From: Thermoplasmatota archaeon
GTDB lineage: Archaea > Thermoplasmatota > E2 > JACPAO01 > JAHFTW01
Assembly: GCA_046352715.1 (NCBI GenBank)
Contig: JBHELM010000099.1
Coordinates: 1-33,394, forward strand
DNA length: 33,394 nucleotides
Direction of reading: 5' to 3'
The stretch's first letter is position 1; every line of letters starts with the position of its first letter. The position numbers were made by a program, and so were the translations under genes. The notes beneath the pieces were generated by a model, which was not told the DNA's origin, ran no database searches, and worked only from the letters and a program-made list of their open reading frames with translations. Shown here piece after piece: positions 25,342-28,086 of the stretch.

Positions 25342-28086
25342 ATGTCTTTGCGCTTGACCCCGCAGCTTCGGCGCGCCATCAGCGACGACCCATCTGAGTG
25401 CATTCTTTGGGTGGGCGCGGGGCTGTCGGTCTCAGGCATCAGAGCCGGAGGCCAAGGGCTCCCAGATTGGAAGACCCTTCTGCGCCACGCGATTAATGAC
25501 CTCCGCGATTCGGAAAAATGTGATGCTGAAACCCTGACAAACTTAGAGACTTGGCTGGAAGGAGGCAAATACCTTGAGATTGCGCAAGAGTTCCACAACC
25601 GAACTCGCCCCGACCAGTTTGCTGAATTCATCAGGGCAGAATTCGACCCCGATGATCTCGTTCCATCAAAGCTCCACGAAACGATTCTGCAATGCAAGTT
25701 CCGAGGCGTCATCACGACCAACTTTGACAAAGTGTTCGAGCGTCAGGGGTACTCACTCGACCCGTTGGTCTACCCGCTGTGTCTCGACGATCTCAATGGC
25801 TTCAAGCGTCTCGGGTTCTTTGCAAAAATACACGGCTGTGTCCGCCAAACGCCAAACCTCTACGAGAACCTCGTTCTGACTGAGGCTAGTTATGCCTCCC
25901 TCCGACGCAACCAGAAATACCGTTTGATTCTCCAGAGCTACTTTGTCCGACATACAATTTTGACAGTAGGCTTCTCGCTCCAAGACCCAGATTTCCTTGG
26001 CCTCCTTGCTGACCTCCGAGACATCTTGGGTGACGCAACACCTACAGTATATGCCCTGATGCGCGAGCCGGGCCACGAAGCGCGAGACAAGTGGCGAAAA
26101 CAAGGCGTTGAAATCATACCCTATGGAAACCATGCTGAACTGCTGCCGTTCTTCGATGAGATGGTGAAGCTCGCAACAAAAAAGCACCCAGTTCCGACAC
26201 TCCCCTCGGGGGCAGGGGCGTCAGAAATAGATTATGATGCCCTAGCAGAGATTTGGAGAGGAACTCACAAGATTGAAGAATTGTCGGAGCTCATCGAGCG
26301 TCAGCTGTCGGGCCTGTCGAATGGACTGCAGAAGGAGTCTTTCCTTCTCCAGTTCCTCGCGCTCGTCGGGAAGAGAGACCAAGTCCGTCTCGCACCTCAA
26401 CTGGTTGCTCTTGGGACTCCTCGGTCTGAGAAGGCTCTGCTTCTTATGTTCAGAGATGGAGTTGAAGGCGAGAAGGGGTCTGCTCCGGTGATTTGGCCCA
26501 CTCTCCAACCTCATCCAAAGCACGTCAATGTCCACCAGTGGGTCCTGAGCCACTGGCCTGACTTCGCTCAGAACAACAGCGAAGCCTGCTTCGAGTGGCT
26601 TCTTAACAAAGAGTGGGAAGACGCAGGGATTGATCTTTGGCAGACCTTCCTCTCGGTTCTGAACCGTATTGTCGCAGGAGACCGAAGACTTGGCCTTGAC
26701 GCGCTTTACTCCAAGGCTGAGCATATCGAGGGCGCGCACGAGAGAATTGAGAAAGTCGTCTTCGCTCCTGGGTTCGTCCGCGAAGATGACACAGACCGCA
26801 AGTGGTTCAAGAGTTGGGACGAGCAAACTTTGGAGAGTATCCGGTATGCAAAGTTCCAGAAGGCGCGCTCTGATGGAAGGACATACAGTGAGCGACTCGC
26901 GGAAGCCATGAAACTCGATGAGAACCGACCGGAGAATGTCTACCGCCCGTACGTTAATGATGTTCTCCACAGTCTTTTCGATGAGTATGTCCAGCGCACC
27001 CATTTGACGACGCACAGCAGTTCAGGGCTCTACAACCCGGAGAAGGCCAACGAAATCCTCGACGCCCTTTCGGCTCTCAAAGGGGAGGATCGCCAACTCA
27101 AGGTCCTTTGGGCCATCAACCATTGGCCCGAAACCCGACGCGGCCTAGGTTCGCTCGGCGAAGACGCCAAGAGTCTCCGGAATGGGTTGTTCGCCCCGCT
27201 CTGGTGGAGGTACTCCAATGAGACTCGCATAGCCTACCTTCGTGAGCATAGAGGCCGGCGCATGCATGGGAACCGGTGGGAAGCAGGACAAGAGGTTTTA
27301 CTCGAACGAATGATGGGCTTCACCTATGATGTCGATGAAGAGTTCCGTGAAGCCTTCACGGCCAATCTGTCGGACCACCTATCCAAGGACGGTTCAGATA
27401 GCGAAGGCTTCGACACGTATGAACCTCGTCCGTTTCAAGAGATATGGCGTGACCGCGAACTGACCTATAAGTTGACGGACGAAATTCCGCCCGAACTGGT
27501 CTGGAGAGTGGCGGCGAAGCGGGTCGACTGGGAAAATCAGCAGGATGCCAAGGTTCGCTGGCGTGAGGCGCGAGACCGCGCCAAAGTGCTCTTTGCGGAA
27601 GCTAGTCTTTCGGGTCTCATATCGGCAGAGCGGAACGATTACGTCATCGACGGCCTTCTTGGGGCCTATTTCCCTGAAAAGCTGCAGGTCGTTATCTATT
27701 CCCGTATGATTTCTTTGGCAGCGAAGGAACTTGGCGTGGACCGAGACGCGCTGGGGACCGTTGTCTTCCTTCATCTGACGGCACATGCCTTTTCCCACAT
27801 CGGGAAGGATAGGGATGGGCGAACGTGGTCAACCTTTGCGATGCCCCTGGCGGTCACCAACGCTCGCCCGAGTCGGCCAAGCGAAGCAATCGCTCAATTC
27901 TACACATTCAGGCTCATCGCAACTCTAGGGGACCAGGAACTAATGCAGACATTTTTCACGCTTGAGCGACATTGCACTGAGATCCATCGCGCGTGGAGAG
28001 CCACGGAAGAGTACGACTTGGAACAAATGAGAGCCGTCCTCGTGAAGTACCGGAAGGGGACTGAAGAATGGCCTCCGCCCGTTTGA
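25342..28086 (+). CDS. SIR2-like (SIR2_2 type) domain protein with a ~630-aa uncharacterised C-terminal region
   Basis: Residues 1-280 contain ILWVGAGLS, GLPDWKTLL, ITTNFD (N127, 25720-25722), KIHG (H164, 25831-25833), LVLTEASY and TVGFSLQDPDF. The remainder is a continuous, helix-rich 2.7-kb ORF with no motif I can assign. Confidence 0.85.
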   Translation: MSLRLTPQLRRAISDDPSECILWVGAGLSVSGIRAGGQGLPDWKTLLRHAINDLRDSEKCDAETLTNLETWLEGGKYLEIAQEFHNRTRPDQFAEFIRAEFDPDDLVPSKLHETILQCKFRGVITTNFDKVFERQGYSLDPLVYPLCLDDLNGFKRLGFFAKIHGCVRQTPNLYENLVLTEASYASLRRNQKYRLILQSYFVRHTILTVGFSLQDPDFLGLLADLRDILGDATPTVYALMREPGHEARDKWRKQGVEIIPYGNHAELLPFFDEMVKLATKKHPVPTLPSGAGASEIDYDALAEIWRGTHKIEELSELIERQLSGLSNGLQKESFLLQFLALVGKRDQVRLAPQLVALGTPRSEKALLLMFRDGVEGEKGSAPVIWPTLQPHPKHVNVHQWVLSHWPDFAQNNSEACFEWLLNKEWEDAGIDLWQTFLSVLNRIVAGDRRLGLDALYSKAEHIEGAHERIEKVVFAPGFVREDDTDRKWFKSWDEQTLESIRYAKFQKARSDGRTYSERLAEAMKLDENRPENVYRPYVNDVLHSLFDEYVQRTHLTTHSSSGLYNPEKANEILDALSALKGEDRQLKVLWAINHWPETRRGLGSLGEDAKSLRNGLFAPLWWRYSNETRIAYLREHRGRRMHGNRWEAGQEVLLERMMGFTYDVDEEFREAFTANLSDHLSKDGSDSEGFDTYEPRPFQEIWRDRELTYKLTDEIPPELVWRVAAKRVDWENQQDAKVRWREARDRAKVLFAEASLSGLISAERNDYVIDGLLGAYFPEKLQVVIYSRMISLAAKELGVDRDALGTVVFLHLTAHAFSHIGKDRDGRTWSTFAMPLAVTNARPSRPSEAIAQFYTFRLIATLGDQELMQTFFTLERHCTEIHRAWRATEEYDLEQMRAVLVKYRKGTEEWPPPV

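Follow-up and report, generated by a model that had tools for sequence, protein, structure and literature searches.

What is the function of a SIR2-domain protein that carries a long tail of unrecognized sequence and resides in a genomic island of an archaeon? This question is raised by a gene on contig JBHELM010000099.1 of a Thermoplasmatota archaeon (assembly GCA_046352715.1), which was analyzed over its whole length of 33,394 nucleotides (hereafter, the window). SIR2-type hydrolases of nicotinamide adenine dinucleotide (NAD), or NADases, form one of the main classes of effectors in abortive infection. To our knowledge, DSR2 is one of only a few cases in which the cue recognized by the SIR2 sensor tail has been identified. 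By sequence features and by analogy with DSR2, the protein in the window is regarded with moderate confidence as a DSR-like NADase that acts in abortive infection without a partner and has a new sensor tail.

The gene is an uninterrupted 914-codon open reading frame (ORF), as had been stated in an earlier reading of the sequence (hereafter, the original prediction). Its ATG start is preferred over the internal GTG of an 891-amino-acid (aa) public call (P0001), because the family alignment is conserved from Met1 (MxLHLTxQFxRAIxDDPxKCILxVGAGLS). Family members are named by NCBI only as 'SIR2 family protein.' The whole gene and the elements of its N-terminal part are as follows.

25342..28086, + strand, stop codon included: whole gene of the SIR2/helical/zincin-like protein, a 914-aa ORF with an ATG start.
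25342..26181, + strand: N-terminal defence-type SIR2 domain (SIR2_2), residues ~1-280, predicted NADase effector (Pfam, PADLOC and PDB profile matches).
25720..25722, + strand: codon of Asn127, the predicted catalytic Asn, in ITTNFD; aligned with DSR2 N133.
25831..25833, + strand: codon of His164, the predicted catalytic His, in KIHGC; aligned with DSR2 H171, with DSR2 H171A entries among the PDB matches.

The N-terminal part had been predicted to be a defence-type SIR2 domain with intact catalytic Asn and His, and the homology searches agree with this assignment. Pfam SIR2_2 (PF13289) covers residues 122-259 and profile positions 2-141 of 141 (E = 1e-20; 74.7 bits against a cutoff of 24.5), and it is matched by all 28 of the 28 aligned homologs. 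The six SIR2 motifs quoted in the original prediction are all found in the ORF translation. In the 28 aligned homologs, N127, D129 and H164 are invariant and G25-A26-G27-L28-S29 is nearly so, N127 and H164 being in register with DSR2. The head is the most conserved part of the protein, with 63% mean pairwise identity. Alignments to the PADLOC models ThsA, LmuA, Dsr2, Dsr1 and PDC-S25 and to the NCBIfam Dsr2 equivalog are confined to residues ~20-263. The PDB profile search with the head gave DSR2 as the best match (9.7e-12), together with KomC (1e-10), FAM118B (6e-8) and ThsA. The structurally characterized proteins nearest to the head, DSR2, KomC and ThsA, are NADase defence effectors. The SIR2 part contains no CxxC pairs, and therefore lacks the zinc ribbon of canonical sirtuins.

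These properties of the head also bear on a non-immune function. In that case, the protein would be a maintenance or addiction factor of mobile elements, or an NAD-dependent protein-modifying enzyme (deacylase or ADP-ribosyltransferase), and its tail would bind a cellular partner. SIR2 domains can indeed also modify proteins (PMC9503650). However, the closeness of the SIR2_2 head to NADase defence effectors and its missing CxxC zinc ribbon argue against such a role, which is considered improbable also in the light of the tail fusions and gene contexts described below.

Proteins P0053-P0059 share 49-65% identity with the window protein over the SIR2 head only. Those with domain matches behind this same head carry TPR, HEAT/ARM or NACHT domains (P0054, P0055 and P0059) or HAD-type domains (P0053), and these different tails show recent head swapping among immune-type proteins. 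Avs5/SIR2-STAND and SIR2-TPR proteins likewise have a very similar SIR2 head and the same effector-plus-sensor logic, but no P-loop, NACHT, NB-ARC, TPR or HEAT Pfam match is present in the window protein (for the NTPase, in 28 members). The head is also similar to that of Thoeris ThsA, which is the best PADLOC match (1.9e-15) and is found in the PDB as 7uxt (1e-8). However, only positions 23-232 of the 478-position ThsA profile match, and the window protein has no SLOG/STALD or Macro domain. A TIR (ThsB) gene is absent from the scanned window genes and from the called genes of nine homolog loci. Membership in the SIR2-HerA or SIR2-pAgo (SPARSA) systems was considered and rejected, as the window and the homolog loci contain no HerA, short pAgo or APAZ gene. 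Thus, as had been predicted, no known partner (TIR, HerA, pAgo or STAND) is adjacent in the window, nor in the nine other loci.

The tail, residues ~285-914, was divided into three parts.

26194..26943, + strand: helical region A, residues 285-534, specific to the SIR2 family and the most variable part (39% mean pairwise identity; all-helical in the AlphaFold2 model; weak ARM/HEAT-type Foldseek matches).
26944..27408, + strand: helical module B, residues 535-689, which accompanies the terminal domain (52% mean pairwise identity; profile positions ~250-405, common to ParA-like- and TCAD9-headed proteins of ~800-950 aa).
27409..28083, + strand: predicted terminal zincin-like domain, residues 690-914, with a conserved core at ~760-900 (AlphaFold2 model, signature conservation and profile search).

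This tail is recognized by none of Pfam (2025 copy), NCBIfam 20 and PADLOC 2.0, the versions of which contain no model of it, nor by sequence and profile searches of the PDB, which gave noise only (e.g., THI13 at E = 0.06). The AlphaFold2 model of residues 285-914, built from a 21-sequence alignment, is a confident one, with a mean predicted local distance difference test score (pLDDT) of 83.7 and a predicted template-modelling score (pTM) of 0.66. It is almost all helical, with a few short strands close to the C-terminus. A Foldseek search of the PDB with this model gave nothing at E <= 1e-3 among the 50 matches listed, and DSR2 is not among them. The list is headed by solenoids of the ARM/HEAT type (She4, condensin Ycg1, AP-2, beta-catenin and importins) with template-modelling scores of ~0.2, and the helical tail model has no match to an NTPase fold. 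The description of this ~630-residue tail in the original prediction as helix-rich and devoid of library domains is consistent with these results, but its description as wholly unassignable is not: the C-terminal part is a predicted zincin-like domain belonging to a large unmodelled superfamily.

DSR2 consists of SIR2, MID and alpha-solenoid C-terminal domains, and is activated by binding of a phage tail tube protein to the C-terminal domain (PMC11850899, PMC10973363). The window protein resembles DSR2 of Bacillus subtilis (PDB 8k98, 8wkt and others) in being a single large polypeptide with an N-terminal SIR2 head and corresponding Asn and His residues (N133 and H171 in DSR2), a long tail of helical, solenoid-like build, the lack of a partner gene, and a location in a defence island or mobile element. 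However, NCBIfam NF041819 scores only 30 bits against a cutoff of 1400, with only profile positions 24-229 of 1215 aligned; PADLOC Dsr2 aligns to residues 77-238 only, the PDB profile search reaches only residues 41-269 of DSR2, and DSR2 is without an HExxH-type terminal domain. DSR1 is likewise a single-gene protein with a SIR2 head and a long uncharacterized tail, but PADLOC Dsr1 aligns to residues 40-220 only (profile positions 39-215 of 1227; E = 4.6e-4). The expectation that the tail is neither that of DSR1 nor that of DSR2 is thus upheld: the NCBIfam Dsr2 model and the PADLOC Dsr1 and Dsr2 models align to the SIR2 part only. Judged by sequence, the protein is of a known kind, a single-protein SIR2 effector-sensor fusion, and what is new is the unmodelled tail and the sizeable, defence-associated domain superfamily to which it leads. 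The family thereby pairs a known kind of SIR2 head with a different tail. No description of this architecture was found in the literature on SIR2 with metallopeptidases or zincins and on TCAD9.

An exhaustive search of 1.84 billion representative sequences with a profile of the tail detected 1,137 proteins at E <= 1e-3, of which 423 have E <= 1e-10. The matches fall into three tiers. The whole tail is confined to the SIR2 family, and region A is matched only in SIR2-family proteins and in fragments of ~180-520 aa; it is not in the scanned ParA-, TCAD9-, STAND-, HEAT- or LRR-headed proteins. In the second tier, proteins of ~800-950 aa contain profile positions ~250-615 (window residues ~535-900) behind other heads, which are ParA/MinD-like P-loop NTPases (9 of 20 scanned) or a TCAD9 kinase-like domain (P0086). 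In P0089, the head is ParA-like and gives a match to the PADLOC candidate PDC-M28B (3e-26). In the third tier, the terminal ~140 residues occur alone in hundreds of proteins of 180-1,453 aa, in which the partners are STAND/AAA NTPase domains, HEAT repeats and leucine-rich repeats (LRRs), and also Cas_Cmr5 (two proteins, 4.9e-28), HicA and specificity domains of restriction-modification (RM) systems. A word-index homolog search with the terminal domain gave fragments of the same family only, and the superfamily is visible only by the exhaustive search.

Versions of the terminal domain of ~332 aa are encoded on two annotated plasmids, in defence-type operons. On pSR76 of Salinibacter ruber strain SP38 (locus L093, 5581-6579), it lies beside genes for a DUF262 protein and a large helicase; on the plasmid of Ca. 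Fervidibacter sacchari strain PD1 (locus L094, 5542-6540), the operon comprises a helicase, RmuC, DUF1156, the domain protein, DUF499 and an AAA ATPase. Head and tail are thus each independently mobile, which is a hallmark of effector-sensor immune proteins. Shuffling with such immune modules as NACHT, TPR, STAND, Cmr5 and PDC-M28B is a further argument against a non-immune role. If a single member were characterized, a large hidden domain family (>1,100 proteins) could be annotated, and invader sensing derived from proteases might be revealed.

The terminal domain contains two conserved motifs.

27772..27798, + strand: HLTAHAFSH, residues 811-819, an HExxHxxxH motif with Glu812 replaced by Leu (family consensus HETVHAFSH).
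27880..27909, + strand: SEAIAQFYTF, residues 847-856, the helix of Glu848 and Gln852, a candidate third metal ligand; conserved in the family and in distant members.

The hint of a degenerate HExxH-type helix near the C-terminus in the original prediction is borne out by the first of these, which is a degenerate form of the family-wide HETVHAFSH. Over the last ~140 residues, the superfamily signature is HExxHAxxHxGxDxDG...ExxAQ, and the consensus in the SIR2 family is VVFIHETVHAFSHIGRDxDG ... HEAIAQFYTF. H811, H819, D823, A851 and Q852 do not vary in the family alignment, and H815 and E848 hardly do; E848, 33 residues past H815 on the next long helix, is kept in 60 of 64 family rows. In 131 distant members, the same positions recur: H819 and D823 in 120 each, H811 and Q852 in 119 each, E848 in 101, H815 in 97 and E812 in 93.

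These features point to a zincin-like fold. The AlphaFold2 model of residues 689-914 (pLDDT 80.8, pTM 0.80) has three short strands and a helix, followed by the motif helix (113-132 of the model) and then by the long helix with E848, an order which we take to be that expected for a minimal gluzincin. No distant member of the terminal domain exceeds any Pfam threshold in the signature region. In 60 short distant members, sub-threshold Pfam matches were to Peptidase_M91 (13 members), SprT-like (7, best 2e-6), M1 (5), Zincin_2 (4), M13 (4) and M78/IrrE (3, best 3.7e-4), and further ones to Zincin_1, M76, M32 and BSP; all are families of HExxH zincin metallopeptidases. Such matches are ~17-65 residues long; in the ten members checked, they span 17-64 residues and are sited on the HExxH helix, so that their support is at the level of the motif. 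Foldseek with the terminal-domain model gave nothing significant in the PDB (best E 0.45) or in the viral BFVD, and the zinc hydrolases DPP III, YbeY, FtsH and 3cmn are only among the weak matches. Taken together, the motif, the order of secondary structures and the sub-threshold matches make a zincin-like fold of the terminal domain quite probable.

Among known zincins, Lit, ImmA/IrrE-type M78 and SprT-like proteins have an HExxH(xxxH) helix followed by a helix with a conserved Glu, as is predicted for the terminal domain, and ImmA/IrrE probably share the exact HExxHxxxH spacing. However, the terminal domain has no above-threshold Pfam, PDB or Foldseek match, and the window copy is without the catalytic Glu. 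Lit is triggered by a phage capsid peptide and cleaves EF-Tu. As a zincin-like protease of abortive infection, it illustrates that a domain of this kind can act in such defence (PMC3506569). An earlier publication mentions STAND NTPases with fused 'inactive zincin-like' metalloprotease domains (PMC8195603), which may or may not be identical with the terminal domain.

The Glu of the HExxH motif is not uniformly retained. At position 812, 62 SIR2-family members include 55 with Glu, six with Leu and one with Gly. The change from Glu to Leu arose independently at least three times: in the window lineage, in P0030 and in the clade of P0035, P0039, P0042 and P0047. The nearest Glu-bearing relative of the window protein is 61% identical to it, and the other Leu-bearing members are 40-48% identical. 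An intact HExxH is found in 55 of 62 SIR2 fusions (89%) and in 80 of 94 terminal-domain-only proteins (85%), but in only 9 of 29 extended-module proteins with another head, mostly a ParA-like NTPase (31%). Among these 29 proteins, 18 are without the Glu, and in 15 neither the Glu nor the second His remains, although most of the latter retain H811, H819, D823 and Q852. In zincins, loss of the HExxH Glu abolishes peptidase catalysis. Therefore, the conserved role of the terminal domain would extend beyond catalysis and would most simply be binding, and the pocket of the window copy (HLTAH) is expected to bind but not cleave. The recurrent, context-dependent loss of Glu provides a natural comparison of binding and cleavage.

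The same data can be read in terms of proteolysis. The zincin-like domain would then be a working metallopeptidase in most members, serving as a second effector that cleaves a target from the phage or the host, or processing the protein itself to release or activate SIR2, and the Glu-less window copy would be an attenuated or altered-function variant. Such a protease is suggested by the prevalence of intact HExxH in the SIR2-family and terminal-domain-only proteins, by the strong conservation of H811, H815, H819, D823, E848 and Q852, by the absence of any other enzyme-like domain from short proteins and from HEAT and LRR fusions, and by the precedent of Lit (PMC3506569). On the other hand, Glu was repeatedly lost in the SIR2 family without decay elsewhere in the protein, no peptidase family or structure is matched above threshold, and the motif is intact in just under a third of the other-headed proteins, in which catalysis is therefore dispensable for the role of the module. 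A protease-dependent or dual-effector mechanism is thus considered unlikely, although it is the strongest of the alternatives, and a sensor role of the tail is preferred.

Gene contexts were compared for ten loci (the window and nine homolog loci), and association with defence islands was judged by eye. No neighbour gene is conserved across the ten loci, and a second copy of the terminal domain is in none of the examined loci. One homolog locus is a defence island with a Type ISP RM gene, Shedu SduA_C, RelA_SpoT, an AAA_21/15 ATPase, RhuM and MNT-HepT. Others contain KilA-N, a 1,864-aa helicase, Mrr and a Schlafen-like gene; ArdC and an NB-ARC-TPR protein; ParE/Phd toxin-antitoxin pairs and DUF4145; or a serine recombinase and LexA. 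Further loci have a DDE transposase nearby, lie in a conjugative element, or contain transposases, an integrase and a group II intron. The predicted location of homologs in defence or mobile-element contexts is thus seen in most of the ten loci, and the gene behaves as stand-alone cargo of mobile elements and defence islands. A 799-aa gene directly upstream of the homolog P0016 (locus L004) was considered as a module-bearing partner and was rejected, as it has no similarity to the module.

These contexts cut both ways for the non-immune alternative, i.e., a maintenance or addiction factor or a protein-modifying enzyme. Several are merely mobile elements, with transposases, conjugation genes or recombinases and without recognizable defence genes, and one is a housekeeping context, as would fit this alternative; several others are clear defence islands, which argues against it.

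In the favoured reading, i.e., a stand-alone NADase with a sensor tail, the SIR2_2 head would be the effector, which hydrolyses NAD+ using Asn127 and His164. The tail (region A, module B and the zincin-like domain) would hold the SIR2 head inactive until an invader cue is detected. The cue would most likely be a protein or peptide bound by the metalloprotease-like pocket together with the variable helical surface. The variability of region A (39% against 63% for the head) is as expected of a recognition surface. Detection would switch on the SIR2 NADase by allostery or oligomerization, as in DSR2, and the resultant depletion of NAD+ would abort infection. The window copy, with its change from Glu to Leu and its retained His, Asp, Glu and Gln positions, would be a pseudo-protease receptor. 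The sequences themselves show the domain anatomy, the conserved residues, the shuffling of heads and tails, the lack of a constant partner gene and the genomic contexts, and from these the NADase activity, sensing by the tail, its trigger and the abortive outcome are inferred.

Several points weigh against this reading. The motif is intact in the large majority of family members, so that proteolysis may be a regular part of how the protein works, and the tail may do more than sense; in the HEAT and LRR fusions, the zincin-like domain resembles an effector, not a sensor. The zincin assignment itself comes from a motif, secondary-structure order and sub-threshold matches, with no significant Foldseek neighbour. 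The association with defence islands is a non-statistical, by-eye judgement on ten loci, of which one (L090) has neither mobile-element nor defence genes, its context being the housekeeping one. No SIR2-family member comes from a cultured organism, and a bacterial-type protein may not be expressed or work in an archaeon.

A broader possibility can be proposed tentatively. The tail might represent a new and widespread immune module, a zincin-derived receptor that takes up an invader protein in its protease-like pocket and signals to interchangeable heads (SIR2, ParA-like, TCAD9 and STAND), with active proteases having repeatedly become dead pseudo-protease sensors. The window copy would then be one of very few archaeal SIR2-based abortive-infection systems.

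How did such a gene come to be in an archaeon? About 50 full-length homologs of ~900 aa and 36-61% identity were found, nearly all from metagenomes or metagenome-assembled genomes (MAGs). In GTDB representative genomes, the full-length form is only bacterial, being present in Ca. Wunengus, Verrucomicrobiota, Acidobacteriota, Planctomycetota, Bacteroidota, Eubacteriales and others. Full-length homologs are absent from 72,556 annotated plasmids, and the tail module is absent from 50,697 phage records. The archaeal host that had been predicted is consistent with the source of the contig, a Thermoplasmata MAG. From 1 to ~23 kb, the window contains archaeal-type housekeeping genes, including those for a geranylgeranyl-reductase-like flavoprotein, PurA, Rpe, an HPS-RraA fusion, and HVO_0163- and HVO_A0261-type helix-turn-helix proteins, and the host proteome is non-acidic. 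A haloarchaeal host, to which the HVO_-named Pfam domains might point, was considered and rejected, because of this non-acidic proteome and because proteins related to the 453-aa neighbour of the SIR2 gene are named Thermoplasmata. The real genes stand out by their GC content at third codon positions. Host genes have a guanine-plus-cytosine (GC) content of ~0.72 (range 0.70-0.78) and a GC content at third codon positions (GC3) of 0.91-0.99, and we take this Thermoplasmata genome to be unusually GC-rich for an archaeon. By comparison, the SIR2 gene has a GC content of 0.55 and a GC3 of 0.62.

GC content falls from ~23.1 kb on, with the SIR2 gene as the extreme and a GC3 of 0.78-0.83 in the later genes. 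The low GC content of the gene had been noted correctly in the original prediction, but the drop is not exactly at the gene start, as the low-GC island starts near 23.1 kb, and the label of the neighbour as a recombinase is not confirmed by any profile library. Since the homologs are bacterial and the GC content is deviant, the best reading of the archaeal copy is horizontal transfer, in which the SIR2 gene would recently have entered a Thermoplasmata archaeon from bacteria as cargo of a defence island. The window copy would thus document recent movement of a defence gene from bacteria to a high-GC archaeon of this group.

This deviant composition, the bacterial origin of all full-length GTDB relatives and the lost catalytic Glu of the tail motif would also fit a passenger without function, in which a transferred bacterial gene is unexpressed or inactive in the archaeon and E812L is a first step of decay. 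However, the 914-codon ORF is intact and keeps every other invariant position of the family, the protein is identical in two independent assemblies, and the Glu-to-Leu state recurs in bacterial members that are otherwise well conserved. The gene therefore has only a slight chance of being such a passenger, and a functional defence gene acquired from bacteria is preferred.

The second assembly is GCA_020201635.1, in which the 8,848-bp contig JAIVGJ010000047.1 (locus L088) corresponds to 23101-31948 of the window at 99.97% identity. The arrangement is not a chimera, because this independent assembly matches it so closely. The contig of the second assembly starts at 23101, where GC content begins falling; this fits strain-variable flanks at the left junction of the island.

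In the island, the SIR2 gene is preceded by a 453-aa recombinase-like gene and followed by a SoFic-like Fic gene, a winged helix-turn-helix gene, a second SoFic-like gene, an HNH gene and a C5 cytosine methylase gene.

23689..25050, + strand: 453-aa recombinase-like gene at the left end of the island, putative function (conserved residue pattern only).
28369..29268, + strand: SoFic-like Fic gene 1 (Pfam Fic 1.2e-22; PADLOC SoFic 4.9e-37 and PDC-S04 1.8e-37).
29347-29694: winged helix-turn-helix gene, between the two Fic genes.
30611..31681, + strand: SoFic-like Fic gene 2 (Pfam Fic 7.7e-17; PADLOC SoFic 1e-32, nearly the whole profile).
31744-32856, - strand: HNH gene (Pfam HNH, weak; PADLOC HNH 5.5e-7).
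32696-33394, + strand: C5 cytosine methylase gene, cut by the contig end (Pfam DNA_methylase 3.4e-47; PADLOC MTase_II 5.5e-60).

The 453-aa protein has no match in Pfam, PHROGs, PADLOC, the PDB or a tblastn search of plasmids. Its family has six members, and those with a source name are from Thermoplasmata/Thermoplasmatota MAGs. R169, K214, K/R289, G-H315 and Y323 are conserved in this family, which may represent a candidate divergent family of archaeal tyrosine recombinases. The two SoFic-like genes are probably further defence genes of the island. The HNH and C5 methylase genes are divergent, their longest ORFs overlap by ~160 bp at the 5' ends, and they resemble an RM pair.

The boundaries of the island contain no tRNA gene, no Rfam match and no convincing att-type direct repeat, and its right end lies past the contig. 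An 18-nt repeat (25190-25207, upstream of the SIR2 gene, and 28040-28057, within its 3' end; 17 of 18 positions identical) was considered as a remnant of a second copy of the SIR2 gene and was rejected, as tblastn finds no such copy; the repeat is probably due to chance. Two further repeats accompany the Fic genes. A 27-nt direct repeat (30024-30050 and 30375-30401; 26 of 27 positions identical, 351 bp apart) lies in the gene-poor ~900 bp from the winged helix-turn-helix gene to the second Fic gene. The ORF of the second Fic gene is bracketed almost exactly by a 25-nt inverted repeat (30589-30613 and 31701-31725; 80% complementary), suggesting a mobile cassette or a regulatory structure.

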